Below, in pieces: positions 38,503-61,825 of a stretch of DNA of 64,000 bases. Position 1 is the stretch's first letter. Every line of letters starts with the position of its first letter. The notes under the pieces are model-generated. The model made no database searches. It was not told the DNA's origin and saw only the letters and a list, made by a program, of their open reading frames with translations. The position numbers and the translations under genes are program-made. The stretch is from an uncultured virus (IMG/VR IMGVR_UViG_3300030376_003962) (taxonomy: Duplodnaviria > Heunggongvirae > Uroviricota > Caudoviricetes), in the IMG/VR virus record IMGVR_UViG_3300030376_003962, one strand, 5' to 3'.

Positions 38503-39057
38503 GTGTCTAACTGGACCGAGGTTCTCAAGAAGGTTCCCGCATTTGGTATGCGGGCTAATGAGGCGTCGATAAATCAGAAGATAGAGCAGTTTCAAGAGAA
38601 GCAGATAACCCCGTTCATTGCGAACCTAATGAGCAATCTAAAAATGAACCAACTTCCGGTGTTCAAGTTGAGGGTTGACAACAATGCTGCTAACAGTGGG
38701 CCTCAAGGAGACAAGTTTGTTATTGGTCGAGACCAAATCAGACAATTGGGCGGAGATGTGAATAGAATCAATGCGAAGTTGAAGCAACTGTTCATTGATG
38801 CAAAATATCAGGTGGAAGGCTCTATGATGGGCAAGGACATGACTGTTGGAATTCCTAGGATTGCTATGAGTCCTACTGGAAAGATTATGACTGACCCAAG
38901 ACGATATGCAGCCATGCAAGGACGAAGAGGCTTCATGGGCAAACTTAGGAGAGGCGGAAGAAGAATCAATCCAATGACTAGATTCAAGGATGACAGAGCA
39001 AGGGATTTCTCTCTAGATAATCCCAATGACCCAAGAGTACGAGGGGAGATTAATTAA
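38503..39057 (+). CDS. Hypothetical late protein with SNWTEVLKK leader
   Basis: First gene of the head module; GTG start. Confidence 0.6.
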   Translation: MSNWTEVLKKVPAFGMRANEASINQKIEQFQEKQITPFIANLMSNLKMNQLPVFKLRVDNNAANSGPQGDKFVIGRDQIRQLGGDVNRINAKLKQLFIDAKYQVEGSMMGKDMTVGIPRIAMSPTGKIMTDPRRYAAMQGRRGFMGKLRRGGRRINPMTRFKDDRARDFSLDNPNDPRVRGEIN

Positions 39058-39135
39058 ACTCCCATGCGTTAATCGTGAACCAAACGATTTTAGAACAACG
39101 TTTATTGTCCTCTGTTTATTCAGGGGAATCAGGTT

Positions 39136-39333
39136 GTGTCATCAGTATCCGAATCATCTTGGTTTAATTTACTGCGAAGTGCTGGCGCAGTTACCACAAC
39201 CTCCGGCGGAACAGCGAATTTATTCAATATGAGTTACGGGGGGAAGAAGCGTGGTAAAAAGAAGAAAAAAGCCCGTAAAGAAGAAGACTCAGACAGTCGA
39301 GTTAGCACCGGGATTGGAAGGAGAATTAGTTGA
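39136..39333 (+). CDS. Small basic protein with SWFNLLRS motif
   Basis: 65 aa, Lys-rich tail. Confidence 0.45.
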   Translation: MSSVSESSWFNLLRSAGAVTTTSGGTANLFNMSYGGKKRGKKKKKARKEEDSDSRVSTGIGRRIS

Positions 39334-40345
39334 GGGCCAAAGTGCGGTTCCTGATTTTTCAGAACTCTATGCTTCATGGGAAGCAGAGGCGAAAGGCTTC
39401 ACTTTGAGCATGGGAAGAACTTCGACTAACATCTTGGAATTCATCAAGAACATGGGTGTGAAGGGAAGAGCGAAAGCGGATGGTGGTTCAGCATCGAAGG
39501 TCGCACCTACGCAGCAGTATCTAGATAAGGCCAAGAGTGCTGGTGCTGAAGACCACTATTCCGATGAGCAGATAGAGGCAGTAAAGTCATTGAAGTCCTA
39601 TCTTGGTGCGAACAACTCTCCTACTTCTAAAATCAATCCTGCTAACATCAAGTTCAACGGCATCGCTGATTTCGACAGCAAGGGAAGGATAACTGAGAAA
39701 GTTCCAGTGTTTGGTGATTTTAGAACTCCGATGTATGCGAAGTATCGAAGGAGACACAAGGGAGAATCCGTCAAAGTAGCAAATTCAGATTGGTATGCAA
39801 TAGGTGAGGATGGAGCAGGGAAGGCAAAACCCCCTGTTTGGCAAGCGTTGTTTGGTAATGGAGATTTACAATTCAAGCATCCTAGTCTCTTGATGATGTG
39901 TGACATGGTTCTTGATGCGTTTGAAAAGGGCATTAAGATACGCAACACTAGAGAAAAGCCGTTCGACTTGACTATCAGGAATCCGAAGATGAGGGGAGAG
40001 GCGGCAAAGTGGGTTTATGAGAACATCCCTACATTCAAGAATTGGTTCGATAGTAAAATCAACAACTCTGCCTACCATTATAGCACAGGAAATGTGAATA
40101 CCAAGAAATTGCAGAGAGAAATCCTGAATACTAAACTTCCATTGAAAGATGATGAATCTAAGAAAATACAATCATGGCTACAAACTGACCTCAAGGTGGA
40201 CTTAGAGGAAGTCTACCTGAAGATTTCAGTAAGGCAACTTAACAACATGGTAGAAATCGCTGGTTTCAAGAATAAGAAAACAGAAAAGAAGATAGAAAAG
40301 CAAGATTTTTCAGATTGGAGAATGATTATTAAAACGGTGAGATAA
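39251..40345 (+). CDS. Hypothetical virion-associated protein
   Basis: 364 aa, ends SDWRMIIK. Confidence 0.65.
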   Translation: MVKRRKKPVKKKTQTVELAPGLEGELVEGQSAVPDFSELYASWEAEAKGFTLSMGRTSTNILEFIKNMGVKGRAKADGGSASKVAPTQQYLDKAKSAGAEDHYSDEQIEAVKSLKSYLGANNSPTSKINPANIKFNGIADFDSKGRITEKVPVFGDFRTPMYAKYRRRHKGESVKVANSDWYAIGEDGAGKAKPPVWQALFGNGDLQFKHPSLLMMCDMVLDAFEKGIKIRNTREKPFDLTIRNPKMRGEAAKWVYENIPTFKNWFDSKINNSAYHYSTGNVNTKKLQREILNTKLPLKDDESKKIQSWLQTDLKVDLEEVYLKISVRQLNNMVEIAGFKNKKTEKKIEKQDFSDWRMIIKTVR

Positions 40346-40438
40346 AATGGGATGCAGAGGAATGATAGAAGTGGGTTCGGATAACATGGCAGTTGGCAGT
40401 TGTTGTCCGTATTGCTACACGAATTGTAGGTGAAGAAG

Positions 40439-40981
40439 ATGAGTTGGAGAAAAATATTGAAGAAAGAAATAGATTTTAAAGAATTATCAGAGGAAGTTGA
40501 GCAGTTTCAGTTGGAGGACTTTAATGCGGTTAAGCATGAAGATTTTATAGAATTCTACGATAAAATCGGTAAAGATGGCAGAGACTCAAAAGAACTAAGA
40601 GAAACTTTAGATGAAAGTGAAAAGAAATACCTCGACAAGCACATTGAGGCAGTATTTCAAGGAATACAACAGTATAACAATTCTCTATATTACCTCGGAG
40701 AAGCACTGGGGGATATTGGGGATGGAAAGGAAAAGAGCGAAAAGGACCCAGTTCCTCAACTTCAGTACGGTAACAAGAACGCAAAGGCAGTTGAAGCAAT
40801 GTCATCCTTTCAAGACCAATATTATGAAAACCCATATTCTGACCCGGAGGAAAATAGAGAGTTAAGTGCTTTCATAGCAGGAGTAAGCAGAGGTGAGTCT
40901 GTGACAGAATTAGAGAAAGAGTACCCCGGAGCATACATAGTCTTCGATAGTGCTGGATTATTGAACGAGGTGGAGGAATGA
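40439..40981 (+). CDS. MSW-leader acidic protein
   Basis: MSWRKILKK. Confidence 0.65.
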   Translation: MSWRKILKKEIDFKELSEEVEQFQLEDFNAVKHEDFIEFYDKIGKDGRDSKELRETLDESEKKYLDKHIEAVFQGIQQYNNSLYYLGEALGDIGDGKEKSEKDPVPQLQYGNKNAKAVEAMSSFQDQYYENPYSDPEENRELSAFIAGVSRGESVTELEKEYPGAYIVFDSAGLLNEVEE

Positions 40982-41163
40982 GTTGGGTAGATATTCTGAA
41001 AGAAGAGATGACTGAGGAAGAGAGAAAGAAGTACATGAAGAGGTTGGCAGAGATGCAGCGGGCAGAGGAAAACATCAAGCGAGATGTAGAAGGAACCGCT
41101 GAAGCATTCAAAGATGGAGAATCTTTTTCACAGTACATGAAGAGAATGGGATATAACTTCTAG
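40978..41163 (+). CDS. MSW-leader small protein
   Basis: MSWVDILKE. Confidence 0.6.
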   Translation: MSWVDILKEEMTEEERKKYMKRLAEMQRAEENIKRDVEGTAEAFKDGESFSQYMKRMGYNF

Positions 41164-41171
41164 GTGAGGAT

Positions 41172-41828
41172 ATGATTACTAGAAAGCGTTGTCCTCTGTG
41201 TATGCATGAGGATAGGAGTCAACTTGAGGCTGATTTGGAAGCCATGAGTTACACAGCAGACGCTCTCGACCAGCAAATGGGATGGCAAAGTGGAACAACA
41301 GCCCGTCATCAGAGGAATCACATGGGAGCATATGTCGAATCTGCAAATCCTAGTTGCAAATTATGCACAAGTCCGATGAGAGCGGAGATAGAAGCGCAAC
41401 TTCACGCTGCTGAAGTCACTCCAACTGCTGTAGCGGAGATGCTTGGGTGTTCTGAGGTGCAAGTTGTGCGTCATATCGACAAGCATCTCAAGCCAGTCGT
41501 GCAACAATCGGCTGCGAACCTGATTGCAACGAGGGAAGTTGATGAAATCGAGACTTTGAGCGTGAATGTTCAGAGATTGGAGCAAAAAATTGATACACTT
41601 TTCGCTGAAGACTCAACAGACCCGAAATATATCGACTCATTGACCAAATTAGCGAAGGAAGTTCGTGAGTCGTTGAAGTATTTGCTAGAATTCAAGGGCA
41701 AATTGGTGCATAAGAGGCAAGACACTATCATCGTTCATCAGATGCAGGTAATCAAGGAAGTTCTAGCGCAGAACCATCCCGATGTCTGGGTTGATGTGAG
41801 AAGCAAACTACAGGAGAAGATGCAATGA
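41172..41828 (+). CDS. Putative terminase small subunit / DNA-binding protein (tandem CxxC-HTH-HxxxH)
   Basis: Two repeats CPLC...RHQRNH and CKLC...RHIDKH plus a coiled coil; upstream of terL in the head module. Confidence 0.5.
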   Translation: MITRKRCPLCMHEDRSQLEADLEAMSYTADALDQQMGWQSGTTARHQRNHMGAYVESANPSCKLCTSPMRAEIEAQLHAAEVTPTAVAEMLGCSEVQVVRHIDKHLKPVVQQSAANLIATREVDEIETLSVNVQRLEQKIDTLFAEDSTDPKYIDSLTKLAKEVRESLKYLLEFKGKLVHKRQDTIIVHQMQVIKEVLAQNHPDVWVDVRSKLQEKMQ

Positions 41829-42121
41829 GTTGGATGGCGGTTCTTAAGCAAGAAGACCTTGAAGTTTTTTGGAATTCAAAAGATGGAAAGGCAGGTGCAG
41901 AAGTTTTCTATGCAGGTTATTGGGGAATTTTGTCTTTTCATCATGATGGAGAAGAAAGAAAGGGATTGGGAGAAAAATACCTAAGAGAACTGGTTGAACA
42001 CTTGCTTTCAATAAAGGATGCAGACATAGAGGCCGATGGAACTTTACCCGATGTAGATGGATTTTGGAATAAAATGCTAGAGAAAGATATTATTGATTCA
42101 ATTAGAAGAAGAGGACAATAG
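41825..42121 (+). CDS. MSW-leader GNAT-like acetyltransferase
   Basis: MSWMAVLKQ; ERKGLGEKYL (motif A) and GFWNKM. Confidence 0.55.
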   Translation: MSWMAVLKQEDLEVFWNSKDGKAGAEVFYAGYWGILSFHHDGEERKGLGEKYLRELVEHLLSIKDADIEADGTLPDVDGFWNKMLEKDIIDSIRRRGQ

Positions 42122-42132
42122 GAGAAGATGCA

Positions 42133-42423
42133 ATGAGTTGGAAAGAAGAGATAAAGAAAAGGTTGAAGGAGTTACCTAGTCAAACAGTTGGTAAGGACTT
42201 GGATAATTTGGTTGGGCTAGAAGGTAGTTTAGTTCAATTAATGCAAGAGATACGTGAATTTTTCCCTGAAGCAGATGATGTAAAAATCGTATACGATTCT
42301 TCTTCCCGACCAGTCATAGGGTTTAATCTCCCTATCTTTGTCACATCCTCGTTTGGGTCGAAGGAGTTCCCTAGCAATACTGAAGTGTTTACAATTAAAC
42401 ATGTGCAGATTGGTGAGAAGTGA
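42133..42423 (+). CDS. MSW-leader protein
   Basis: MSWKEEIKK. Confidence 0.6.
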   Translation: MSWKEEIKKRLKELPSQTVGKDLDNLVGLEGSLVQLMQEIREFFPEADDVKIVYDSSSRPVIGFNLPIFVTSSFGSKEFPSNTEVFTIKHVQIGEK

Positions 42424-42428
42424 TTGAG

Positions 42429-42599
42429 ATGAGTTGGGAAAATCAAATCAAAAAATATGATGCTACGGCAGAAATCGAAAGAGCATTAGGCATTGTTCGC
42501 AAATTAAGAAAACACTACAATATCAAAACTGAGCATACAGAGGGCTTAGAGTCTTTACTCGTAGAGATATTAAACGAACTTCAGGAAAAACCACAGTGA
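42429..42599 (+). CDS. MSW-leader 56-aa protein
   Basis: Hand translation MSWENQIKKYDATAEIERALGIVRKL... Confidence 0.55.
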   Translation: MSWENQIKKYDATAEIERALGIVRKLRKHYNIKTEHTEGLESLLVEILNELQEKPQ

Positions 42600-42610
42600 G
42601 TTTGATTCAG

Positions 42611-47196: not shown

Positions 47197-47200
47197 GGAA

Positions 47201-47686
47201 ATGGCAGATATTAAAATCAAGGAAGTATCAAAGGATGATGCCTTCTTCATGTGGAACAGGGACAATCCTGATGACCCGTTTGTAAGAAACCTTCCTTCTT
47301 GGTATGACTTAGATAATTGGGTTGTCAGGGTGAATGATGGTGAAGTCGTCGGAGTTGCAGGCTACAGTGACAAGGGGGATTACGGTATTCTAGGAGGTAT
47401 GAAGGCTAGAAGCAAGGACAAGCCTAAAGGTGGTGGAAACTGGAAAGCCCTACTTGAGTATCGTAGGGACAAATTAGCAGGTAAGCCGAAGATTCTAGGT
47501 CTTGCGTCCAGTAAGATACCACAGAGTACATGGGTGAAGATGAATAGAAATGCTGGCTTTCAAACCGATGACTTGATGGGAATACCTGAAGATGTCGTGG
47601 ATAACTTTCGACAGCAATATGGCGATGATTGGGGAATCAGCAAGAGCCTAAGTTGGAGGTTCTACATAATGGAGGGATACTTTTGA
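47201..47686 (+). CDS. GNAT-fold-like protein
   Basis: WVVRVNDGEVVGVAGY...KGGGNWKALL...NAGF. Confidence 0.5.
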   Translation: MADIKIKEVSKDDAFFMWNRDNPDDPFVRNLPSWYDLDNWVVRVNDGEVVGVAGYSDKGDYGILGGMKARSKDKPKGGGNWKALLEYRRDKLAGKPKILGLASSKIPQSTWVKMNRNAGFQTDDLMGIPEDVVDNFRQQYGDDWGISKSLSWRFYIMEGYF

Positions 47687-48651
47687 CATTGTGGTTTGAA
47701 GAGTTGAAGAAGGAGAAGGATGCTTGCTATCGCAAGGTCAGAAGCAGATACAAGAAGTGGCCTTCTGCCTATGCGTCAGGTGCATTGGTACAATGCAGAA
47801 AGGTAGGTGCTGCTAATTGGGGTAACTCGGTTAAGAAAGCAGAATCAAAATACACGCCTAAGAATCTATCAGAGGAAAAAAGAAAACTGTTTGAATCTGA
47901 GCCTTCATTCGATGTAGACTTCCCTGACTATGAGCATCCTGAGAATGAGAAAGAACTTCCAAAGGTTCTCGCTATGATGAATGCTCAGAAGATTAATGAT
48001 GATGAGATAGAAGACCTAGACCAAAACAATAACGAGATGATGTTGAAGATTGTTGGTGAGAGTAGAGAGGATAGAGAAGATTTGATTGAGGATATTGGTA
48101 TTCATACAATCAAACTCAAAGTGAAATATGGAAGACCAAGACCCTACGAGATATCCGATAAGATAGAATCTACAACAAATACGGATGACAGTCCATCTTT
48201 CCCAAGCGGTCATGCGATGGAAGCCTATGCATTAGCCAAGGTTCTAGGTAAGGAATATCCCGATAAGCAAGAAGAGTTGGATAAGATGGCTGCTAAGATA
48301 TCATTGTCTAGAGTTCAAATGGGCAACCATTACCCAAGTGACATCGAAGTAGGGAAGAAGGCTGGTACACTAATAGGTGAAACGTATCTAGATAGAGATA
48401 TGAAGAAGTCATGGCAGGAAATGCTGGTTAAGGATTGGGTCAGTTGTTCGTCTTGCACAGATGACAAACCCGGAACGGAGCCTTGTGGTAGGAAAGATGC
48501 ATCGAAGGGAACGAAGAGAAGATGTCGCCCGACCTGCTCTGCCTGTAAGGACTACAAGAGACGAGGCGGAAAACCCAAGAGAAGGAAAGCAGGAACATTC
48601 AGTAGGGAGAAAGATGAGGGTCTTCATGGTTGGTTCAAAAGGAGGGGTTGA
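47683..48651 (+). CDS. Modular protein containing a PAP2/haloperoxidase-family phosphatase domain
   Basis: KVKYGRPRP, SFPSGH, SRVQMGNHYPSD; flanked by Cys/Lys-rich modules; N-terminus LWFEELKK. Confidence 0.8.
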   Translation: MTLWFEELKKEKDACYRKVRSRYKKWPSAYASGALVQCRKVGAANWGNSVKKAESKYTPKNLSEEKRKLFESEPSFDVDFPDYEHPENEKELPKVLAMMNAQKINDDEIEDLDQNNNEMMLKIVGESREDREDLIEDIGIHTIKLKVKYGRPRPYEISDKIESTTNTDDSPSFPSGHAMEAYALAKVLGKEYPDKQEELDKMAAKISLSRVQMGNHYPSDIEVGKKAGTLIGETYLDRDMKKSWQEMLVKDWVSCSSCTDDKPGTEPCGRKDASKGTKRRCRPTCSACKDYKRRGGKPKRRKAGTFSREKDEGLHGWFKRRG

Positions 48652-49224
48652 ATGTCCAGTATAGAAAAAGCAAAATTATCTAAAGATGCAATTAGAGAAT
48701 ATATTAAGAAGATATCAGACATAACCAAAGATATTCAAAAAATATCGGAGGCTACATATGCTACAGGAGAAACAGAAGATAACCGCATTGATAGAAGTGC
48801 CTTCATAGATTTGCTAAGAGAATTAGAAAGTGGTCTTGACAGTGTTCAAATGAATTTAGAAGAAATGGAAAGTCTTTATGATGATTTTGAAATTGCTGAT
48901 TCAGAACTAATCAAATCTTGGTTCGATGTAGTTAAAAATAAAAAATCTAAGAAGCATCCTGCACTGAAGAGAGCAGGTGTCAGTGGCTTCAGTAAACCAA
49001 AGAGAACCCCAAAGCACCCGAAGAAGTCTCATGTTGTTGTAGTGAGAGATGGCAAGAAAGTCAAGACAATTAGATTTGGGCAACAGGGTGCTGATACCGT
49101 CACTGAGAAAAACCCCAAGGGAAGGAGAAGAAAAAAGCAAGCATCGTTCAAGGCTCGTCATGCTAAGAACATAAAGAGAGGAAAGACCTCTGCTGCGTAT
49201 TGGGCAAATAAAGTGAAGTGGTGA
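48652..49224 (+). CDS. Protein with basic C-terminal phage head-region domain (DUF6321-like)
   Basis: KPKRTP...KTIRFGQQG...SFKARH...SAAYWA..KW. Confidence 0.6.
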   Translation: MSSIEKAKLSKDAIREYIKKISDITKDIQKISEATYATGETEDNRIDRSAFIDLLRELESGLDSVQMNLEEMESLYDDFEIADSELIKSWFDVVKNKKSKKHPALKRAGVSGFSKPKRTPKHPKKSHVVVVRDGKKVKTIRFGQQGADTVTEKNPKGRRRKKQASFKARHAKNIKRGKTSAAYWANKVKW

Positions 49225-50663
49225 ATCGGTTGGATATGGACAATCTAGATTTCGTCTCCGCAATGGATATGGAATTATCTAGAGACTCCTTTCCATATTT
49301 CTTTCAGAATGTTCTAGGCATGATGTTTCCACCATATATGGAAGAATGGTTGAAGTCTATGGAATCAACGGATAGGACAGTTATCATTTGCAGCAGAGAC
49401 CACGGAAAATCAGTCTTCATGCATTGTTGGGTTGTATGGAATCTAATATTCCAAGAACCACCATTTCAGATGCTGTACATCTCATCTAACCAAAAGCAGA
49501 CTCTCGTTCACATGAGGGAGATTGACAGGTACTTCAATCATCCAGCACTGAAACAATTCAAGCCTAGTCGTGGATGGGCAATTGGAAATATTCAACTCAC
49601 CAACGGTAATGCGATTCTAGAGCGTTCCGTTGGTTCTCAGATTCGTGGTCTTCACCCGCAGGAGATTATCATTGACGACCCCTTGAAGGAGTTCAGTCTC
49701 GCTGGTATTCAGAGAGTCACTGACTGGTTCTTCGGTGACATGATTCCGACTTTGCATCACACTTCCAAACTCAGGATGATTGGTACTCCTTTCACCTACA
49801 CCGATATCTTTGCACAGTTGGAAGAAAACGAAGCATACACAGTAACAAAGTATCCATGCCTGAATGGATTAAACGAACCACTTTGGCCTGAGCGTTGGGA
49901 CTATGATGCACTCATGCAGAGGAAAGCAGAGATAGGTTCTCTGAAGTTTACAAGAGAATACCTGTGTGTTCCAATCTCCACAGGAACTGCTCTCTTCAAT
50001 CCTGAGTTTGTGACAAAATGCAAGAACAAAGAGTATGTCCTAAAACTAGGTCATAGGAAAGATAAGGGATACAGATACTATGTCGGTGTTGACCCTGCTA
50101 TCTCAACTGATGGCGACTACAATGTAATAACGGTTCTAGAAGTTGATGATGAGCAGAACAAGACCATCGTTCATGTCGATAGAGCAAAGAACATAGAGTT
50201 CAGGGAGAACATAGAGAAGATTCGTTTGATTGGGAAGGTGTTTGAGCCTGAAGAGATTCTTTTTGAGACCAACACCTTCGCCAAGGCATTCACACAGGAA
50301 CTGAAGAACATGACAGATTTGAATGTCAGGGACTTCAATACCACAAGAAGAAAGAAGCAAGAGATTATTCTGAATCTACAAATGAATATAGAGAACGGTA
50401 AACTGAATTTTCCCTATGGCGACAATGCTAGTAGAAGAGTTACTAATCTTCTCATCGAAGAATTATCGATGTTCTCCATCACTGCATCAGGGAAGTTCGA
50501 GGGAGTTGGAGCGCATGATGATTTAGTCATGAGCCTAGCATTAGCCAACGCTGCTTCACAGGGTACGGGAGAACAGTTTGTTTTATTGGACGACTTGGAC
50601 ATCTTTGATGAACCTAGTAGTCCTCGCAATCGTGTATCGGGTATCATGGGCATCAATTTTTGA
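49218..50663 (+). CDS. terL: Terminase large subunit
   Basis: SRDHGKS (Walker A), IIIDD (Walker B), IGTP, VGVDPA, HDDLVMSLAL. Confidence 0.93.
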   Translation: MVNRLDMDNLDFVSAMDMELSRDSFPYFFQNVLGMMFPPYMEEWLKSMESTDRTVIICSRDHGKSVFMHCWVVWNLIFQEPPFQMLYISSNQKQTLVHMREIDRYFNHPALKQFKPSRGWAIGNIQLTNGNAILERSVGSQIRGLHPQEIIIDDPLKEFSLAGIQRVTDWFFGDMIPTLHHTSKLRMIGTPFTYTDIFAQLEENEAYTVTKYPCLNGLNEPLWPERWDYDALMQRKAEIGSLKFTREYLCVPISTGTALFNPEFVTKCKNKEYVLKLGHRKDKGYRYYVGVDPAISTDGDYNVITVLEVDDEQNKTIVHVDRAKNIEFRENIEKIRLIGKVFEPEEILFETNTFAKAFTQELKNMTDLNVRDFNTTRRKKQEIILNLQMNIENGKLNFPYGDNASRRVTNLLIEELSMFSITASGKFEGVGAHDDLVMSLALANAASQGTGEQFVLLDDLDIFDEPSSPRNRVSGIMGINF

Positions 50664-50672: not shown

Positions 50673-52010
50673 GTGGGAGAAAAGGGAGATAAACTCAGAG
50701 AGGCTGCTGAACTTGCAGACAAAGAAGAGCAACTTCGTGAAAGACAAAAGGAACTCACTGCTGAACTCAAGGGTGAATGGTTAGAATCCCAACCACTTAG
50801 CAGCCATTTGGATGTTGAGAAAAGGTTTGCAGAAGAATACAACGTTGCCCTAACTGATGCTAGAAAGGCTATTGACACCAACATCAAAAAATACGAGATA
50901 GAGGGAAAAGACATCCCTATGATGATTAAAGAACTAAGGGTGTATAGAAGAACCCTGAAAGGAGAACCCAAAATAGCCGTCACTAAGTCAATTGATAACC
51001 TAATAGACGCATACTCATCTCACCTCGATAAGAGTTTGGATAAGGTTTACTGGATTAAAAAATACAAATCTGCCTTGAAGGACATGACACTCTCTGAAGA
51101 GAACATAATCAAGTTATCATTGATTAAAGACGAAGAGACTAGAAGAGAAGTTGTTGACACACTTTGCAAGTATTGGGAGGCTAGGGTTGAAAGAAACGGT
51201 ATGCCGTACAACTCAGAGTATGCAAAGTTAAGCAAAGAGATGTCTGCCACCAAGAGGGAAGTAAAGAACACAATCAAGAAATACGTCGTGAATATCGGCC
51301 CTAAAGAACTAATCAAGAGACACATCGTTAGACTCGTCACAGAGGAACAAGGCATATCGGCAAGGCAGGTTCACGAAAGACTACCAAACAATCTATTCAG
51401 AAAATCCTCTCCAAGCATGATATCGAAATTAGCAAAAGCATCGAACGTGACTAATGTAGATGGTGCATTATACAAGATGAGCGATGAGATAAAGAAAGAC
51501 ATCTACGCATACACCGCCGCATTCATCGACTCTGATGGCTACATCACGATGGACAAGAACCACAATCCTAGAGTTGGGTTGGTAGCGACAGGAGACAGGG
51601 GGAAGGCATTCATGTTGGAGATGCACAAGTCTCTAGGCTGTGGAAGGCTTCACCTTGACCAAAAATCCCCACAGGATACGAAGCCAATAAATCGACTAAA
51701 CTTCTACTCTAGAAAGGACGTAGGAGAGATACTTGGCAAGTGTATGCCATACTTCAAACTGAAGAAGAAGAATGCTGAGATACTGGTTGAACTGCTTCGT
51801 ATGAAGAAGGGACATAAGAAGGCTGGTTGGTATAACGCTAGGAAAGTAGAATTGTTCAAACTCATGAAATATGAAAATCACAAGGATGATAAGAACTACG
51901 ACTTCGCAAGATATGATATCGACATAGACAGCGTTGTGAAATACTACGACAACAACAAGATGTCTGAGATGGATAAACTAGAGTCGATAGTAAAGAACGG
52001 GGAGGAATAA
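50673..52010 (+). CDS. Protein with HTH and C-terminal LAGLIDADG domain
   Basis: GISARQVH (HTH-like); YTAAFIDSDGYI; PYFKLKK. Confidence 0.75.
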   Translation: MGEKGDKLREAAELADKEEQLRERQKELTAELKGEWLESQPLSSHLDVEKRFAEEYNVALTDARKAIDTNIKKYEIEGKDIPMMIKELRVYRRTLKGEPKIAVTKSIDNLIDAYSSHLDKSLDKVYWIKKYKSALKDMTLSEENIIKLSLIKDEETRREVVDTLCKYWEARVERNGMPYNSEYAKLSKEMSATKREVKNTIKKYVVNIGPKELIKRHIVRLVTEEQGISARQVHERLPNNLFRKSSPSMISKLAKASNVTNVDGALYKMSDEIKKDIYAYTAAFIDSDGYITMDKNHNPRVGLVATGDRGKAFMLEMHKSLGCGRLHLDQKSPQDTKPINRLNFYSRKDVGEILGKCMPYFKLKKKNAEILVELLRMKKGHKKAGWYNARKVELFKLMKYENHKDDKNYDFARYDIDIDSVVKYYDNNKMSEMDKLESIVKNGEE

Positions 52011-52011: not shown

Positions 52012-53631
52012 ATGGTAGAAAAAAGACCGACCTTGTTTCAGCGTCTAACACGCAGAACAACGCCTAAACCACAAGATAGAACGATATACAATCCGGGCAT
52101 CCAAGAGAAGGACACATCCTATCTCATAACTGCGCCGATTATTTATCATGTAACATATCAATCAGTGATTGCTAGAACCTGTATTACGCAGTTGAAGAAT
52201 GAGATATTCAGAAGAGGATATACATGGGAAGAGAAGTTCACAGTTAGGTGTGGAGATTGTAACAGGGAACACAAGCAACCAACGCTAGAGTGCGTAGAGT
52301 GCGGAAGCATGAATCTAATCAAACCCGATAGAAAGCAATTGAAGTATATTCACAAATTGCTAGATGGTCATGTGAATAGAGGTGAACAGATGTTCATCGA
52401 TGTTCTCAAGGAACTTGAGGATGACTTGAACATCATGGATGATGCTTATCTTGTTATGGTGAAGGAGTATTTCGTTGATGGTAATGGTGACATTCGTATG
52501 CATCGAATCAAAGAGGTGTACCGTGGAGACCCCGTTACAATGCATATCTATGCAGATGAGAATGGTGAGAGAGGACATCAGGGCTTCACTTGTTTGACGC
52601 ATAGAGATTTCATCAGCACCTCCCCTAGTGATAGTTGTGAACACTGTGGTTCTGAGTTGCATCCTGTTCATTATGTGAATAGGGTGAATGGAACCGAACA
52701 GTATTTCATTGAAGGAGAAGTTCTTCATTTCAGTAAGTATGCTCCATCAAGATTGTATGGGCAGTCTCCAATCATGACTCTTTGGAATCATATCACAACT
52801 CTCATCGCTATGGAAAACTATGTCAACTCATCATACACAAAGGCAAGGATGCCAAGAGGACTACTCGCTGTTCAGACGAGGAATATGGAATCCATGAAGT
52901 CGTTTTGGCGAGGTGTCAAGGACAAGATGGAGCAAGACCCACACTTCATACCAGTTATGGGAATAGAATCTGACGGCGGTAAGGGAGGCATCGAGTGGAT
53001 TAAATTCATGGATAGCCTCAAGGAGATGGACTACATACAAGTCAAGGAAGACTTGAGAGATAGAATCGCTGCATTCTATGGTGTCAGTAAGATATTCATG
53101 GCAGACAACTCTGCCAGCGGTGGGTTGAACAACGAGGGTATGCAGATACTCGTAACTAACAGAGCAGTCGAAATGGCACAGACGATTTGGAACGATTATG
53201 TGTTCCCATTCATGACCAAGGAGTTTGGAATCACTGATTGGGAATTGAAACTGCCACCTTCAGAAGAAGAGGATGAGATTGCCAAACTACGAAAGAGAGA
53301 GATAGAAGTCAACGTGGCAGCGTCAATCAAGAACCTCGGATTTGAGGTTGACATGGATGACGAAGGAAGATTCACTTTCAAGAAGCCTGACCCTAAACCC
53401 GAAGCACCACCGCAAGAAGAAGGGCAAGTAGAAACTGACCCATACGCAGGAACAGATATCGATGCAAGTCAACTTGGGCAACTACAGGAACAGCAGTTGA
53501 TGGGTCAAGGCGGTGGCGAGACTAGAAACAAACCATCTATGGAAACTGGCCCTGATAAGAGATTCACAGGATTACCACAAGAAGCAGGTAATCAAAATGT
53601 TGATTCACGAACAGAGAGGCGGGTAGGCTAA
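52012..53631 (+). CDS. Portal protein
   Basis: Position after terL; LYGQSPI, PRGLL, RIAAFYGV; Zn-ribbon-like insertions. Confidence 0.88.
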   Translation: MVEKRPTLFQRLTRRTTPKPQDRTIYNPGIQEKDTSYLITAPIIYHVTYQSVIARTCITQLKNEIFRRGYTWEEKFTVRCGDCNREHKQPTLECVECGSMNLIKPDRKQLKYIHKLLDGHVNRGEQMFIDVLKELEDDLNIMDDAYLVMVKEYFVDGNGDIRMHRIKEVYRGDPVTMHIYADENGERGHQGFTCLTHRDFISTSPSDSCEHCGSELHPVHYVNRVNGTEQYFIEGEVLHFSKYAPSRLYGQSPIMTLWNHITTLIAMENYVNSSYTKARMPRGLLAVQTRNMESMKSFWRGVKDKMEQDPHFIPVMGIESDGGKGGIEWIKFMDSLKEMDYIQVKEDLRDRIAAFYGVSKIFMADNSASGGLNNEGMQILVTNRAVEMAQTIWNDYVFPFMTKEFGITDWELKLPPSEEEDEIAKLRKREIEVNVAASIKNLGFEVDMDDEGRFTFKKPDPKPEAPPQEEGQVETDPYAGTDIDASQLGQLQEQQLMGQGGGETRNKPSMETGPDKRFTGLPQEAGNQNVDSRTERRVG

Positions 53632-53740
53632 TGGGAATCATCACGGCTATGGTGAAGGACTTAGAGCATCTAGAAATAGTAAGGCAATGGAAGGAAGAAT
53701 TAGAAGCACTACACGCAGAACAAGATGTGGGGGATAAGAA

Positions 53741-54004: not shown

Positions 54005-54231
54005 CAGAAGAAAAGAAAAGCGTAAGAGAATTGGAAAGAGAACTAGCAAATGCAAGGGCAGAGCAATATGCTCACCACAACAGAAACGCCACTAAGAACA
54101 GAGATTACTCTGTGGGTGGTATTGACCCTAATGCTGTAGAGAAGAAATCTCCCGATACAAGGGATGTTCCCGATGCAATCCTACTACCTAAGAAAAAGAG
54201 AGCAAGAACACCAAACAATCCTTGGGGATGA
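54001..54231 (+). CDS. Hypothetical protein
   Basis: Coupled ORF. Confidence 0.55.
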   Translation: MTEEKKSVRELERELANARAEQYAHHNRNATKNRDYSVGGIDPNAVEKKSPDTRDVPDAILLPKKKRARTPNNPWG

Positions 54232-55538
54232 TTCAGGTGAGAACGCAGAATTTCATGGATATTTTGCGTAAGAAGGAAGACGAAGACTATACCACTGGCA
54301 CAGAGGACATCGATGACTTCCGTGAAGCAGAAGAAGCAGCCGATGAAGGTGTGATTCAAGATGATAAAGGTGGCGAGGGAGTAAGCGGTAAAGAACTGGC
54401 TGAAGACAAAAAGCGCAAGAAGCAGAAACTGGAAGCAGCGAAGGAAGCAAGAGCAAAAAATATTCGTCTATGGAAAAAACTACTAGAGGAATTCAGCAAG
54501 CATGGGGATATAAAAAACGAGAATATGGGTGAGATAGTAGTAGAATTCTCAAGGTCATTTCTCATACCGAAAAAAACTAGTGCTAGTAAAGTGATGAATT
54601 TCTATCGCACTCTAGTTCCTACAGGTCTAGACGAAAGACCTACTGCTGAACCTGAACTTCTAGATTTATTCTATGAGAAGGAGACTGCTGAATCAGCAAG
54701 AGACCTCAATACTAGAATAGATACTCTAAACGTGACAGAAGGAGCAGAACTGCTAGGCGACCTCAAACTCAATGAGTTGGAAGAGAAAGAATACAACGGC
54801 AAGAAATCACTAGATATTCTTCGTGATTTCCTAGATGCAGTAAGTGCTATCAGAGGCTCTGCTCTAAGAGGAAGCGTAATGACAAGACAAAAACTAGACA
54901 CGCTGAACAGGCTATTAGTGACTGGAACGAGAAAAGCAAAAATTACTGATGTTGAAGATATTCGACTTGATATTGAGGGTAAACCACTAGAATTAGATGA
55001 TGAAGGAGACCCTATTGAACCTGAAAAGGAAAGAGGGTATACACTAAGAGGAAGTGATAAGGAACTAGCAGTAACAAAAGCAAATCTAGACACTCTGCTA
55101 GAAAGTTTCCGTATCATAATAATCGTTCTTTCTAAAGTTAAGAGGAATCTTGAGAAAGATGTCAAGAAGTCCATAAATTCAGAGGACACTAATTATGAGT
55201 TTGACTCAACCAAAGAAGCATTGTTTTATGAAAATGTAGATTTCCAAAGAGCGAGAGAAAAAACAAGTCGAATATCTATCTTACCTGAAGAAACAACTGA
55301 TAGTATAGATTATCTCATTGACAAATTAGAAGAGATATACAGAGCGATGGTAGAGTTCATCGAGAATGCTAAAGACGCAGATGAAGAAATTACTAGGTTA
55401 ACAGATGAAGAAATTACTAGGTTAAAGCAGAAAGCAGAGAAGAACAAGAGAGTTATGGAAAACCTAGTGGATACCATGATAGGAAGTTATGAATTTCCTG
55501 TCGAAAACAATAAAAAGAGGGCAATTAAGATTAACTGA
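54222..55538 (+). CDS. Acidic helical protein
   Basis: 438 aa; NFMDILRK near the start. Confidence 0.65.
   Translation: MGMIQVRTQNFMDILRKKEDEDYTTGTEDIDDFREAEEAADEGVIQDDKGGEGVSGKELAEDKKRKKQKLEAAKEARAKNIRLWKKLLEEFSKHGDIKNENMGEIVVEFSRSFLIPKKTSASKVMNFYRTLVPTGLDERPTAEPELLDLFYEKETAESARDLNTRIDTLNVTEGAELLGDLKLNELEEKEYNGKKSLDILRDFLDAVSAIRGSALRGSVMTRQKLDTLNRLLVTGTRKAKITDVEDIRLDIEGKPLELDDEGDPIEPEKERGYTLRGSDKELAVTKANLDTLLESFRIIIIVLSKVKRNLEKDVKKSINSEDTNYEFDSTKEALFYENVDFQRAREKTSRISILPEETTDSIDYLIDKLEEIYRAMVEFIENAKDADEEITRLTDEEITRLKQKAEKNKRVMENLVDTMIGSYEFPVENNKKRAIKIN
55378..55425 (+). repeat. Perfect 24-bp in-frame tandem duplication
   Basis: CAGATGAAGAAATTACTAGGTTAA x2 (DEEITRL repeat). Confidence 0.9.
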
Positions 55539-55559
55539 GTAGTCTCAGGGGTGAACAAT

Positions 55560-55880: not shown

Positions 55881-55947
55881 AACTCAGGGTCGTTGAAGAT
55901 ATAGAATGGCACAAGGGAATGAGTCTTCCAATGCTAGGTGATGAAGA

Positions 55948-56307: not shown

Positions 56308-56317
56308 GTGATGAAGA

Positions 56318-56653: not shown

Positions 56654-56663
56654 GTGATGAAGA

Positions 56664-57230: not shown

Positions 57231-57234
57231 TAAA

Positions 57235-57540
57235 ATGAGTTGGGAAGATATACTAAAAGCACCGCCGATAAGAAATCCTAGAGAAACGGAGTTTAGCCAA
57301 AGAGAAAATGAGAATCTATCTATGAGAGAGTATGTAGATTTATTTGAAAGGGTTGTAGACCCAATGATTGAAGAAAACAAGAATGAATATGCCGTTGCTA
57401 TTCCAGTAACTGAGTTAAAGATGTCAGAAAAGAAGGCAGAGAAGATAGCACAAAAATTGTATAAGAACATGGGATATAATATGATATTTGCAAAGGATGG
57501 AACACTTTATTTCAAACTACAAGGAGAAGGAAGAGTATGA
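57235..57540 (+). CDS. MSW-leader protein
   Basis: MSWEDILKA. Confidence 0.6.
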   Translation: MSWEDILKAPPIRNPRETEFSQRENENLSMREYVDLFERVVDPMIEENKNEYAVAIPVTELKMSEKKAEKIAQKLYKNMGYNMIFAKDGTLYFKLQGEGRV

Positions 57541-57758
57541 GCAAAGAAGAGAAAAATGAGATGCTGCTATTAATGAAGGAACTTGTGAACAAGGTTAACG
57601 CCTTGGAGCAAGCGGTATATGACAAGGACAACCTACTGATGAAATCAGGGTATGTTGTTCGTGAGACTCCAACACCAGCAATAGGCAACACACAAGTTCC
57701 TGATGGTGGAAACATGTCTTGGGATGAGATTCGCAAGATGACTGAGAGAATGGGGTGA
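57537..57758 (+). CDS. Small coiled-coil protein with C-terminal MSWDEIRK
   Basis: Coupled ORF. Confidence 0.6.
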   Translation: MSKEEKNEMLLLMKELVNKVNALEQAVYDKDNLLMKSGYVVRETPTPAIGNTQVPDGGNMSWDEIRKMTERMG

Positions 57759-57985
57759 GACTGATGCCGGAAAGAGTTACTAAAGAAGAGAAGATTGTCG
57801 AACTGGCAATTAATAAAGCGAAGGAAATAATACAAGAAGCAAAGCATCTAGGAACTATCGAGTTAGATGAAGACGTTATGGGTGAGGAAATTAAGGTCAA
57901 AAAACCAAAGAAGAACCCAACTGAAGAATCATTACCAAAGACAAGCAATATAGATGGTAATGAAGATAAGGTAAACGAAGGATGA
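57755..57985 (+). CDS. Hypothetical protein
   Basis: Coupled ORF. Confidence 0.55.
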   Translation: MRLMPERVTKEEKIVELAINKAKEIIQEAKHLGTIELDEDVMGEEIKVKKPKKNPTEESLPKTSNIDGNEDKVNEG

Positions 57986-57998
57986 GGGTCGATGATAG

Positions 57999-60560
57999 AT
58001 GACCACTTCAGGCGTAGCCTTTGAGAAAGAGACTAAGGCACTAACAAAAAGAGTCTTAGATTTCTTTGAGAGAGTTCGTTACGCATACCTTTCGGCAAAG
58101 GAGAACCCGAAAGAATATGGAAAGAAGTGGAAGTCAACCGTCAAGTCAATCCGAGAAGAACATGACGGCATTGGTAAATTTGCATCTGAGTTGAAAGAGT
58201 TCGTCAGAGAGAAGGAACTCTTCGATGATAAGGCATTTGATGTCGAATCAGGAATCGCTAGAAAGGTGTATGAAGATATCAAGAGAATGAGATTTGAATC
58301 TGCTGGTGCAGCAGACCCATTCTCAAAACAACTAGGAGACAAAGTGCTGGAAGTCCTTCTGAGCGATAAGGCAACATTTGCATCATTTATTCACTATGCT
58401 ATGAGAAGCCATGCTAATCCGATACCGAAGAAAGCATGGGAAGCAAACAACCTGAAACCTGATGAGATAACTCAGGGTTCTATGGGTTTGGACATAGAGG
58501 AAAAGGATATTCCACTATACATAATAGAGCATTATGGTGATGATAAAGACAGCAAGAGAGTGAAGGGCAAGTTCAAAGAAGCACTTGCGACTTTGAAGGA
58601 GGTGTTTGGTGAATCGTACTCAGAAGATAAGTACGATGCACTCAGAGAAATAGACATCGCTAAATCAGCAGATGAGAAGCAGGATGTTGATTTCCTCACT
58701 CCCAACAAGCCAATGTACAGAATCTTTGAACTTGAAGATATGAAAGACATCAAGGGTATGAGTGGTGAGTTTGTCGTACAAGAGAAATATGACGGGATGA
58801 GAATACAGATTCATAAATTCGATAATAAGATTAAGATTTACTCTTACAATGAAAAGGATATCACCGAAAAATGTCCTGAGATAGTGGAGAAGATGGAGAA
58901 GAAGGCATTCGGAGATTGCATACTAGATGGAGAGTTACTTCTCTTTCAGGGAGATGAAGCCCTACATCGAGCAAATGTGATTACTCATATATTCAAGAAG
59001 AAAATCGATGGGACGAAATTAAGAGCGCATGTGTTTGATGTGATGAAACATGAAGGAAAGGACTTGACTGACGAGCCTCTTAGAGAGAGAATCAACATAA
59101 TGTTCTACCAGTACGCACAGCATTCATCAGAAGAACTAGCCTTCCCATCCAAGAAAGATACGAGAATAGCAGACTCAATCAAAGAGGTGGGTGAGTATGC
59201 TGACAAAATTATGGAGATGCCCACTTCCGAAGGGGTAGTGATAAAGGACATAGAATCCACATACTACATCGGAAGAAAAAAGAATCCAAAGTGGATTAAA
59301 TGGAAGAAGTTTGTTGATTTGGATGTCATAGTTTTAGAAGACAAGAAAACACAGAGCGGTTTACATTCCTATACAATGGGCATCGGTCCTCTATCTGCTG
59401 AACAAACTAGGGAATACAAGACTGTTGAGATAGATGATAAGAACTACTTGCCAGTGGGTAAGGCACTGAACACTAAGGTATCTGTTGATATAGGCAGTAT
59501 AATTAGAGTGAAGGTAGATGAGGTAACTAAGAAGGAAAAGGGATTCAGTCTCTATTCGGCTAAAGTCATAGAATTACCTGAAGTTGATGAATCAGATAAA
59601 CTAGAGACTTTAGAACAACTAGCGACTAAGACCAAGAAAGCATTAGTCCCTAAGCATCCTTTCCTAAAGCCAGCAGATATAGCGAGTCCTCTAAGTGTCA
59701 TTGCCGAGTTGCAGAGCAGAGACAAGAAGAAAATCAAGAAGTATGTAGTGACTGATTATATTCACGGCCAAGCCGATATAATATGCAAGCATGACTTGGA
59801 CGGATTCACCATCTATGGGTTTGATGGCGATGAATTGATGCAGAAGAATGCTATTGCTTCTATGGATGAAATGAAGAGCCAGTTGGATAAATTCATGAAG
59901 TCCCGTAAAACCAAGTTGAGAGCCAACATCAAAAGAATGGTAGAAGAGAATGACGCACCGATGGAGTTTGATGACATAGAGGCGAAACTCAGAGTTATGG
60001 ATGGAGATGCTTATGATGAGATATTCGAGAACAAGCCGAAAGCACTCATGGCTTGGATGAAGAATCAGGATGCGTTTATTTTCATCTCACCTAACAAGTT
60101 CGATGCATCCCCATATAACATAGAGAAAGATAGTGAAGAGGATGGAGTCGTTGGTGAGTTTGAAGTCAGACAGAGAGATGATGGTAATTTGGATTTCATC
60201 ATTGAGACAGAGAAGAAAAGAATGGCTTGGTTGATTGACATAGAAAAACCGGAAGACATCTATGACTTATTCGGCAAGTCCGGTAAGTTTCCCGCTAAAG
60301 TATCTGAAAAGATAGATAGTACAAAGATTCTAGATTCAGGAGAGTTAATCTTCGGTGTTCAGCGAGATGGCTATCACGAATACAGAATGGAAGGAGATAA
60401 GTTTCAGTCCCGAATACATTTCAGAGTTGTTCCGCTAGATGAAAAGAAGTCTTGGATTGTTTTTACGGGTAAGAAACAAGATATGTTGGATGATAAATCC
60501 GATGATGGAATTATCGATATTACAAAAGACAAGTATAGCAATTTAGAACTACCTAAATAA
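57999..60560 (+). CDS. Second ATP-dependent DNA ligase-domain protein, in the head module
   Basis: QEKYDGMR, LDGE, FDVM, EGVVIK, KWIKWK; long N- and C-terminal extensions. Confidence 0.85.
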   Translation: MTTSGVAFEKETKALTKRVLDFFERVRYAYLSAKENPKEYGKKWKSTVKSIREEHDGIGKFASELKEFVREKELFDDKAFDVESGIARKVYEDIKRMRFESAGAADPFSKQLGDKVLEVLLSDKATFASFIHYAMRSHANPIPKKAWEANNLKPDEITQGSMGLDIEEKDIPLYIIEHYGDDKDSKRVKGKFKEALATLKEVFGESYSEDKYDALREIDIAKSADEKQDVDFLTPNKPMYRIFELEDMKDIKGMSGEFVVQEKYDGMRIQIHKFDNKIKIYSYNEKDITEKCPEIVEKMEKKAFGDCILDGELLLFQGDEALHRANVITHIFKKKIDGTKLRAHVFDVMKHEGKDLTDEPLRERINIMFYQYAQHSSEELAFPSKKDTRIADSIKEVGEYADKIMEMPTSEGVVIKDIESTYYIGRKKNPKWIKWKKFVDLDVIVLEDKKTQSGLHSYTMGIGPLSAEQTREYKTVEIDDKNYLPVGKALNTKVSVDIGSIIRVKVDEVTKKEKGFSLYSAKVIELPEVDESDKLETLEQLATKTKKALVPKHPFLKPADIASPLSVIAELQSRDKKKIKKYVVTDYIHGQADIICKHDLDGFTIYGFDGDELMQKNAIASMDEMKSQLDKFMKSRKTKLRANIKRMVEENDAPMEFDDIEAKLRVMDGDAYDEIFENKPKALMAWMKNQDAFIFISPNKFDASPYNIEKDSEEDGVVGEFEVRQRDDGNLDFIIETEKKRMAWLIDIEKPEDIYDLFGKSGKFPAKVSEKIDSTKILDSGELIFGVQRDGYHEYRMEGDKFQSRIHFRVVPLDEKKSWIVFTGKKQDMLDDKSDDGIIDITKDKYSNLELPK

Positions 60561-60598
60561 CCACGTAGTTCTTATAGTAAGAAAAGTAGGTGTAGGGA

Positions 60599-61825
60599 GT
60601 GTTAGTTGAACAGGAGGTATTGATTAGACAGGAGAGTGCTAGTGATTTCACTATTCTCAAGTCAGATAATCTAGTAATCGGAGGATATGCATCCATCGAA
60701 ATAGTAGACAAGCAAAATGACTTGATAACACTAGATGCACTCGAAAAGGCAGTTAAAGATTTCATGAGTGAGAAATCTTATCGAAACGTCATGTCAAATC
60801 ATTCCAATGTTCAGGTAGGAGAGGTGATAGAGCAATACCGTGATTCCAATGGTACATTACACAAGACAGGTGTAGATGGTGTCGGATTCTATGTAGTTAT
60901 CAAAATGAGAGATGACATAGAGAAGGCAAAGGAAATCAACAGAGGAATCAGAAAAGGCACACTACGTTCCTTCAGCATCGGTGGTCAAGCGATATCAAAG
61001 AGAGAGAGAAAATCGGAGGAATACGGGGAATACAACGAGATTGACAACTTGGAGTTGCATGAAGTTACTATATGTGAAAAAGGAATAAACCCTGAAGCGA
61101 AATTCGACATTTTGAAAGCGAAAGGAGGTAAAGAAATGACGGAAAAACTAGAAAAAGCACTGGAAGAACTCAATGGTCTGCTAACGCAGGTTCGTGATGT
61201 TACTAGTGTTACAAAGGAAGATGAAATGAAAGAAGAAATGGAAACAATGGATGAAACGATGAAAGAAGAAGAAGACGATGTTGAGAGCATGGAAAAGTTG
61301 AGCGTGATGGGTAAACTATCCGAATCAGGCGAAGACGATGAAATGAAGGCTCTTGATGAGGATTCAACAAGGGACTACGAGGCTGGTGAAGAAGTAGTAA
61401 GTGGCGGAAAGCCAAAGGCTGCTCCTGCTGCTCTATCAGTCTCTAAAGGTCTAGAAGGCTCTGACTTTACCACTCTCGACTTGAGTGTTGAGAACGTAGA
61501 GAAGGCTTACGAGGCTTTCAGGGCAGAGCAACTAGAGGCAATGGCCTACGATAATCTATCGAAGACATTCGCTGACAGATTCGCTGCTGAACTCGAAGTT
61601 AAGAAATCAGCCGCAGAGCGAGCAGAGTACGATGCTTCAACAGAAGTAGCGGCTCTCAAAGAAGAGTTTGCAGAACTACGCAAGTCTCTAACTGCAAAGG
61701 ATGATGAGATTAGGAAAGCAAGAGAAGTTGCTTTCTCCCTACCCGAAGGATTCCCAACCACTGCTGGTGCAATGGCTGAGATGTCATGGGGAGACATACA
61801 CAACCTCGCAAGGAAGGTGGAATAA
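60599..61825 (+). CDS. Prohead protease (HK97-type) fused to scaffold domain
   Basis: GYAS...DKQND, SNH...VG, SFSIGG, LHEVTIC...NPEA; acidic coiled-coil C-terminal half. Confidence 0.88.
   Translation: MLVEQEVLIRQESASDFTILKSDNLVIGGYASIEIVDKQNDLITLDALEKAVKDFMSEKSYRNVMSNHSNVQVGEVIEQYRDSNGTLHKTGVDGVGFYVVIKMRDDIEKAKEINRGIRKGTLRSFSIGGQAISKRERKSEEYGEYNEIDNLELHEVTICEKGINPEAKFDILKAKGGKEMTEKLEKALEELNGLLTQVRDVTSVTKEDEMKEEMETMDETMKEEEDDVESMEKLSVMGKLSESGEDDEMKALDEDSTRDYEAGEEVVSGGKPKAAPAALSVSKGLEGSDFTTLDLSVENVEKAYEAFRAEQLEAMAYDNLSKTFADRFAAELEVKKSAAERAEYDASTEVAALKEEFAELRKSLTAKDDEIRKAREVAFSLPEGFPTTAGAMAEMSWGDIHNLARKVE

Follow-up and report, generated by a model that had tools for sequence, protein, structure and literature searches.

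A tryptophan-lysine tag shared by unrelated head-block proteins of magroviruses, a candidate capsid-targeting and cleavage signal

Short terminal peptides that address proteins into HK97-fold shells include the cargo-loading peptides of encapsulins, which are cellular and not clipped, and the C-terminal tails of phage scaffolds; we know of no portable cargo tag in HK97. Here we describe an eight- to nine-residue tag (consensus M-S-W-x-D-I-L-K) carried by otherwise unrelated proteins in a 64,000-nucleotide stretch of an uncultured virus (hereafter the window; IMG/VR record IMGVR_UViG_3300030376_003962, Caudoviricetes). In phage T4, a capsid-targeting sequence (CTS) of about 10 residues stands at the N-termini of unrelated, polymorphic soluble proteins (IPI-III and Alt), with targeting residues (4 and 7) early and processing residues (8 and 10) late, and the protease gp21 cleaves after L/I-X-E (available texts of PMC9026906 and PMC3012670). 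The latter source describes the T4 internal proteins as diverse defence proteins. In HK97, the capsid is cleaved by a viral protease at K103/S104 and the scaffold, or delta domain, belongs to the capsid protein itself, while the scaffolds of P22 and T7 are located beneath the capsomer (accessible parts of PMC10275583).

On its marker genes, the window is assigned to a tailed archaeal virus of magrovirus group B, of which it would be part. The family B DNA polymerase is split over 10239-11903 and 9155-10036 (- strand; both match DNA_pol_B, with a small open reading frame [ORF] in between), two ATP-dependent ligases are encoded (one in the structural module, the second on the - strand), and the capsid protein has haloviruses HVTV-1 and HCTV-1 as its closest named relatives (26-28% identity). 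As far as the available text of PMC5434244 goes, split PolB marks group B magroviruses, which share with the window the two ligases and a halovirus-like capsid protein; a ligase in the structural module is reported there and called unexpected. From about 38.5 kb, the + strand of the window encodes terminase, portal, DNA ligase, an S78 prohead protease-scaffold fusion, and the capsid protein.

A shared tag on unrelated late proteins

A preliminary description of the window had listed 12 strict leaders on otherwise unrelated genes. All are present on the + strand, where they head intact ORFs of 56-603 amino acids (aa) (marked strict in Table 1), and purine-rich Shine-Dalgarno-like words precede every one of these starts. 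The variants it named, which follow GTG starts at 38503 and 39136 and a TTG start at 47683, were likewise found and are conserved by homologs, and its internal and C-terminal copies were located at 40310, 48406, 48913, 57714, and 61781. We add a Phe variant (F-M-D-I-L-R-K) close to the start of the gene at 54228-55538, which is retained in the homologs displayed, giving 16 N-terminal tags in total (12 strict, the three named variants, and the Phe variant). Between 38400 and 61900, the strict motif was seen 12 times, whereas 150 fourth-order Markov simulations averaged 0.12 and never exceeded 1. Tagged genes make up 13 of 28 late genes in the window versus none of 48 early genes (Fisher p=2.5e-7). 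The full motif had been described as absent from the replication and early blocks, and indeed the window carries no strict N-terminal motif on its early strand; early proteins do hold two loose matches at internal positions (21644, 25155), in keeping with the background of 0.24 per 1000 aa. Like the proteins that share the T4 CTS, the 16 tagged bodies are mutually unrelated, a single weak hit (E=0.009) aside.

The window and four near-complete relatives, which supplied the tail block missing from the window, were compared using heuristic gene calls. Tagged genes accounted for 62/155 head-block genes, 0/93 tail genes, 0/43 other late-strand genes, and 1/282 early-strand genes; hence the predicted enrichment in head modules was borne out, the tag being confined to head-block or late genes rather than equally frequent in non-structural ones. 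Two more distant genomes (capsid proteins 59-64% identical) are laid out in the same way. Across 160 related loci plus the window, 661 of 664 tag hits lie on the late strand, and each of the 80 terminase-centred loci has at least one. A DNA-pattern scan of IMG/VR matched at least 129 stretches. Among 15 marker-less loci inspected, the non-magrovirus hits were isolated and formed no arrays; several of them belong to one small membrane-protein family of unrelated phages. Regions from other archaeal viruses (HVTV-1, vir335, and vir519) contained 0 tags. Three contigs of a bacterial metagenome-assembled genome (Maricaulis sp. IN14; L358, L359, and L360) also bear magrovirus head modules and are probably mis-binned viral contigs.

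The complement of tagged genes differs greatly between relatives, as the 12 in the window include 5 in common with relative G002 and 1-2 with each of five others. Upstream DNA was identical at 11 or more of 13 positions in 18/222 adjacent versus 16/1117 non-adjacent tagged-gene pairs. Adjacent tagged genes thus often share upstream DNA, which suggests that ribosome-binding site and leader are copied as a unit. The constraint itself acts on the peptide: codons 6-8 of the tag vary synonymously, copies occur internally and terminally, and AGT, which dominates tag codon 2, is a general habit of the virus (codon 2 in 11/13 untagged Met-Ser genes as well). The tag is therefore a real, widespread, protein-level feature.

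The lysine site and its counterparts in core head proteins

The leader had been described as ending in I-L-K, with the suggestion that it may be clipped after the Lys. The Lys site is real, but what recurs is hydrophobic-x-Lys, held at positions 6-8 or 7-9, and not a fixed I-L-K. In a first set, in which each body family is represented once, Lys or Arg stands at position 8 in 161 of 180 families. Where position 8 is Arg, Lys follows at position 9 in 13/13 families (versus 32/148), and where residue 6 is polar, Lys9 is present in 18/21 (versus 23/130); the majority of true tags with neither Lys nor Arg at position 8 also carry Lys9. The pattern was replicated in 142 further families non-homologous to the first set, which were drawn from the DNA-pattern scan and include a few chance hits from other phages: Arg8 is followed by Lys9 in 5/5 (18/18 combined), and a polar residue 6 is accompanied by Lys9 in 8/8 versus 16/129. 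Because of this compensation, a hydrophobic-x-Lys site is present in 300/303 families (a count that treats Thr and Tyr as hydrophobic when the register is 6-8). As judged from these counts, the tag preserves hydrophobic-x-Lys in either of two registers, and Arg is no substitute. Pro never follows the tag Lys (0/300 versus 11.3 expected), and the second residue past it is acidic in 100/300. The preliminary comparison with protease and capsid sites had implied Ser or Ala after the Lys. That part did not hold, since small residues follow in 60/300 families without enrichment (p=0.065), and a Ser/Ala requirement was rejected.

The sites used for that comparison, I-L-K-S and I-L-K-A in the protease and L-L-K-A in the capsid protein, are themselves present (60647, 61103, and 61899) and conserved. 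The protease, a match to Pfam Peptidase_S78, forms one protein with a coiled-coil scaffold, in place of the gp21 protease and separate gp22 core of the T4 type. The fusion contains 11 hydrophobic-x-Lys-[SAG] sites versus 1.9 expected, and the sites at both ends of the protease domain are invariant (62/62 and 64/64). Because Glu follows the C-terminal one in 52/64, a small residue after the cut site would not be required. In contrast to the scaffold, cargo bodies show no enrichment of such sites (22 versus 25.2 expected), and the same holds for the portal, the terminase, the remaining bodies of the head block, and early proteins. Among 94 distant capsid proteins, hydrophobic-x-Lys closes the conserved N-terminal segment in 80 (versus 12% background), with Lys in 80 cases and Arg in 1; Asp stands two places on in 48/80, comparable to the acidic residue of the tags. 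The head ligase has an N-terminal extension of about 220 aa that is closed by a conserved hydrophobic-x-Lys site directly before the catalytic domain (39/44 distinct contexts), which suggests that this ligase may be processed and perhaps packaged. In the cultured halovirus HVTV-1 (L161:17727-21029), hydrophobic-x-Lys-[SAG] sites number 5 versus 1.4 in the protease and 4 versus 1.0 in the capsid protein. A literature search, light on subscription journals, did not turn up a cleavage site determined by experiment for any protease of haloviruses or magroviruses. Modelled as single chains, the capsid protein and the protease/scaffold gave structures of poor quality (mean predicted local distance difference test [pLDDT] values of 34.7 and 49.4, respectively), and no solved structure matched either by sequence. 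When the capsid protein (122-row alignment) was modelled together with the first 30 residues of the 57235 protein, the score was 0.00, but the controls did not fold and the partner fold was uncertain, so that this score speaks neither for nor against binding.

The similar motif said to close the protease/scaffold protein was found as M-S-W-x-D-I-H at 61781-61801. This tail is strongly conserved (W 44/44, D 43/44, H 43/44) and shares five of its first six positions with the tag consensus. The Trp and Lys parts of the tag can come apart: a spacer separates them in distant homologs of the 55560 protein, whereas in relatives where the 57235 body is fused internally, the Trp is lost and hydrophobic-x-Lys mostly kept. 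Internal tags are flanked by a hydrophobic-x-Lys site on each side. Such separable halves fit an address and a cut site, the functions that we infer for them.

Cargo bodies and modules shared with T4-like cyanophages

The 303 body families have a median length of 100 aa, and 115 are acidic and 39 basic. Membrane-like stretches occur in 3/303; a secretion or membrane signal was hence rejected, and the bodies, like T4 internal proteins, look like soluble cargo differing between related viruses. Few can be annotated, with a Pfam hit for 1/119 tested, a PHROG hit for 6/134 tested, and no usable atlas hit for the 55560 protein. Clues within the window amount to PAP2 and EF-hand-like domains and a weak GNAT lead. 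By analogy with T4, a conflict role for magrovirus cargo would be plausible. A second possible GNAT acetyltransferase, recognised by eye at 47201-47686 (+), ends in a Trp segment after a hydrophobic-x-Lys site.

The module behind the 47683 tag (D-A-C-Y) matches 365 phage records, nearly all cyanophages, and is part of a multi-module protein in S-SM1, S-SM2, S-RIM8, S-B43, and P-SSM3. In cyanophages, hydrophobic-x-Glu (Gln counted as hydrophobic) without a Trp tag precedes both D-A-C-Y (5/5 contexts) and a second module, C-W-x-G-Y (5/5). In magroviruses, the Trp/Lys tag precedes D-A-C-Y in 13/20 and C-W-x-G-Y in 1/1 contexts (within the stretch scanned); a Glu-only site was seen in 0 of these contexts. 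For a third shared module, the counts are 3/5 cyanophage versus 4/4 magrovirus contexts. Among the best 120 of 7958 D-A-C-Y homologs (127 occurrences), 61 have a Trp tag within 24 residues, 44 have the Glu pattern without Trp (two spurious), and 22 have neither, some being untagged stand-alone modules. The same modules thus appear to stand behind Glu in viruses with a Glu-cutting protease and behind Lys in magroviruses.

S-SM1 gp115, i.e., T4-GC119 of cyanomyoviruses, holds both the D-A-C-Y and C-W-x-G-Y modules and sits between the terminase genes in S-SM1 and S-SM2. It shares these small modules and a string-of-modules build with tagged magrovirus proteins and differs in that its modules stand behind Glu-ended sites. 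T4-GC119 was detected in virions with 13 peptides in the first data column of Supplementary Table 8 of PMC3037559, a column that we assign to S-SM1 on the basis of the main text and of the agreement in size (1488 nt); in its available parts, that source calls the protein hypothetical/structural and gives no tag or cleavage model. T4-like cyanophages further encode one to three genes per genome with Glu-ended leaders (L183:1741-2169, L184:3986-4312, L182:4456-4773, and L185:1880-3031), including an apparent cytidylyltransferase family listed as virion-detected. These leaders, which we take to resemble the T4 CTS, are probably the capsid-targeting system of cyanomyoviruses, and 0 leaders of this type were found in five magrovirus sequences.

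Possible roles of the tag and genome context

The motif and the places where it occurs, the rule on the Lys register, the corresponding sites in core head proteins, and the modules in common with cyanophages are all observed here, and we read them as pointing to a two-part propeptide. Residues 1-6 (M-S-W-x-D-I), probably as one face of a short helix, would mimic the tail with which the scaffold ends and recruit the protein to the prohead as it assembles, where residues 6-9 would form a hydrophobic-x-Lys site cut by the S78 prohead protease during maturation. The scaffold, the capsid propeptide, and the head ligase would be substrates of the same protease. New genes would enlist by gaining a neighbour's ribosome-binding site and leader, yielding virus-specific soluble cargo. 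The receptor may be the capsid protein or the scaffold core, on a match that is short and leaves the scaffold His without a counterpart in the tag. We consider it very likely that tagged proteins are cut by the viral protease and likely that they are packaged in the head; that both occur, as the two-part propeptide supposes, is probable, and that the cargo is delivered to and active in the next host is a tentative suggestion. Clipping after the Lys, as first proposed, draws on the register compensation, the lack of Pro, and the scaffold and capsid sites, once its Ser/Ala rule is dropped. The accompanying proposal of head loading is consistent with confinement to head-block or late genes, likeness to the scaffold tail, and modules shared with a virion-found cyanophage family, but has to accommodate relatives with tagged genes outside the head block.

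Such a propeptide would parallel the T4 CTS in its early targeting and late processing residues and in a hydrophobic residue two places ahead of the cut residue. It differs in having Lys for Glu, a Trp anchor, a scaffold-fused S78 protease, and an archaeal host, as well as in its scale (about 16 genes in this genome and more than 300 body families in the loci sampled) and its internal and C-terminal copies, and it is a prediction from sequence. Because the L/I-X-E site and the gp21-type protease are both replaced (hydrophobic-x-Lys in 300/303), the magrovirus tag would work like the T4 CTS but is no member of that system. With HK97, it would have in common that a viral protease matures an HK97-fold capsid in a Lys-directed manner. 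Compared with encapsulin peptides and scaffold tails, magroviruses reuse a scaffold-tail-like motif at N-termini and add a cut site; portal, terminase, and prohead protease flank the tagged genes, unlike a cellular shell. A literature search with subscription journals mostly outside its coverage found no description of the tag. Term searches of the available texts of PMC5434244, PMC11706807, and PMC10160649 gave no mention of a leader or shared motif, and the word 'motif' is missing from the main text of PMC5434244 in its available form.

Several observations weigh against the two-part propeptide. The cyanophage parallel is indirect: T4-GC119 was scored undetected in the third phage column of the same table (PMC3037559, available part), and virion detection concerns a cyanophage protein, neither the module itself nor a magrovirus protein. 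Three other shared modules are weaker or uninformative on the Glu/Lys swap, and the phrog_7595 module is untagged in three small marine phages inspected; since it and the D-A-C-Y module also occur tagless, the tag is not always needed. The position that follows the tag Lys is close to unconstrained (E 43, N 37, K 36, and R 26 of 300), whereas capsid sites favour Ala (39/80), and a helix would likewise bar Pro. Coiled-coil periodicity suits hydrophobic-x-Lys-Ala, which inflates the scaffold enrichment. Because position 7 of the scaffold tail is His (43/44) where tags are hydrophobic, the likeness comes down to six residues, mostly one Trp. Fragment G007 has tagged genes among and beyond its neck and tail genes (the tail genes themselves are untagged), and one tagged 235-aa gene lies on the early strand of G002 (C1:3003-3710, -), at the tail-block junction. 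Finally, body families are not fully independent samples, as leaders are copied between neighbours at the DNA level.

The alternative that survives best, although we consider it unlikely, is that the leader docks as a helix onto some viral or host protein and not onto the prohead, with a Lys that binds or is modified (for example by the viral ThiF/E1-like enzyme with a putative ubiquitin-like protein, or by an acetyltransferase) and with neither cutting nor packaging. SUMO-type sites resemble the tag in having a Lys, then a free residue, then an acidic one; the virus encodes a ThiF/E1-like gene, the C-terminal copies retain the Lys, and a helix through residue 8 would also bar Pro at position 9. 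However, tags with Arg8-Lys9 or a polar residue 6 have a basic residue before the Lys, so that what is conserved is the hydrophobic-x-Lys spacing, which also marks the capsid propeptide and the scaffold. Moreover, the shared modules turn to Glu-ended sites in T4-like phages, and the ThiF gene lies in the early block.

Tagged proteins might instead enter the prohead as a variable inner core destroyed by the protease, or as inert DNA-associated filler, with no job after infection. The mostly small, charged bodies and their single Pfam hit among 119 tested would suit such a role, as would the resemblance of the 57537 protein to a second scaffold. The lack of enrichment of hydrophobic-x-Lys-[SAG] sites within cargo bodies, unlike the scaffold, makes this quite improbable, as do the enzyme-like PAP2 domain in some cargo and the extreme turnover, which would be more in line with conflict than with a structural role.

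Less probable still is a cytoplasmic cut site or degradation signal that times or removes late proteins without packaging them. In its favour, the Lys register is the strongest sequence signal, and the G007 tags are not strictly head-linked. Nonetheless, the site can do without the Trp half, which the protease, capsid, and ligase sites lack and which internal fusions drop; that N-termini retain it calls for some further function, and it resembles the scaffold tail. Prohead proteases also work inside proheads. Least probable of all is a DNA-level by-product, in which a good translation start or a recombination joint spreads between genes and the peptide itself does nothing. Shared upstream DNA and the dominance of AGT could speak for it, but it is largely refuted by the general AGT habit, the synonymous variation, and by amino-acid compensation and internal or C-terminal copies, which cannot aid translation initiation, so that DNA copying explains the spread of the tag and not its constraint.

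The tagged genes and their neighbours are listed in Table 1.

Table 1. Tagged genes and neighbouring features in the late region of the window
Feature	Position	Strand	Remarks
Tagged gene, S-N-W-T-E-V-L-K variant, GTG start, 184 aa	38503..39057	+	Tag in all 5 full-length homologs shown
Tagged gene, GTG start, tag S-W-F-N-L-L-R set back 7 residues, basic tail, 65 aa	39136..39333	+	
Conserved 364-aa gene, C-terminal tag copy 40310-40333	39251..40345	+	35 homolog ORFs; copy in 9/9 displayed
Tagged gene (strict), acidic, 180 aa	40439..40981	+	
Tagged gene (strict), 61 aa	40978..41163	+	
Conserved helix-turn-helix gene, untagged; probably terminase small subunit	41172..41828	+	Inferred from position and conservation
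Tagged gene (strict), 98 aa; possible GNAT acetyltransferase	41825..42121	+	Weak atlas lead
Tagged gene (strict), shifted register (E-I-K-K), 96 aa	42133..42423	+	
Tagged gene (strict), shifted register (Q-I-K-K), 56 aa	42429..42599	+	No homolog among loci compared
Tagged gene (strict), 603 aa	42611..44422	+	
Tagged polyprotein-like gene: D-A-C-Y module, PAP2 domain, internal tag 48406-48432	47683..48651	+	
Fusion gene, internal tag 48913-48936 preceding phrog_7595 module	48652..49224	+	
Terminase large subunit, untagged	49236..50663	+	
Endonuclease-like gene between terminase and portal	50673-52010	+	phrog_5046; 89 homolog ORFs
Portal protein, untagged	52012..53631	+	
Tagged gene (strict), EF-hand-like module, 87 aa	53741..54004	+	
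Gene with Phe tag variant F-M-D-I-L-R-K, 436 aa	54228..55538	+	
Widely conserved tagged gene (strict), 106 aa	55560..55880	+	
Tagged gene (strict), shifted register (S-I-R-K), 119 aa	55948..56307	+	
Tagged gene (strict), 111 aa	56318..56653	+	
Tagged gene (strict), 188 aa	56664..57230	+	
Tagged gene (strict), consensus tag, 101 aa	57235..57540	+	
Conserved 73-aa scaffold-like protein, terminal Trp motif (57714-57737) like scaffold tail	57537..57758	+	
ATP-dependent DNA ligase, untagged, hydrophobic-x-Lys site at residue 222 before catalytic domain	57999..60560	+	
S78 prohead protease and coiled-coil scaffold, 11 hydrophobic-x-Lys-[SAG] sites, tail M-S-W-x-D-I-H (61781-61801)	60599..61825	+	
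Major capsid protein, predicted 28-residue propeptide ending L-L-K (61899-61913)	61827..63200	+	

Outside the late region, the ThiF/E1-like gene lies at 22621-23229 (-), and a 66-aa ORF at 27802-28002 (-) ends in V-V-G-G-C and has a ubiquitin-like look, with no Pfam hit; together they might constitute a conjugation system of the virus, encoded within its early block. The region from 31600 to 38500, where the coding strand switches, is sparsely filled with small ORFs and contains an inverted repeat of 21 nt at 38041-38101.

Magroviruses are abundant in the ocean and uncultured, and the majority of their genes are without known function. If the two-part propeptide is correct, a nine-residue rule would place about 40% of magrovirus head-block genes in the virion interior and would predict exact mature N-termini that can be searched for in seawater virus-fraction proteomes. 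It would also suggest a role for the structural-module ligase, single out candidates for takeover or counter-defence proteins that an archaeal virus pre-loads, and offer a possible route for loading proteins into an HK97-type shell. More speculatively, open-ended head loading may ship hundreds of unrelated proteins into archaeal hosts, and marine bacterial and archaeal viruses may trade modules that are re-addressed between Glu and Lys to suit the protease of each.

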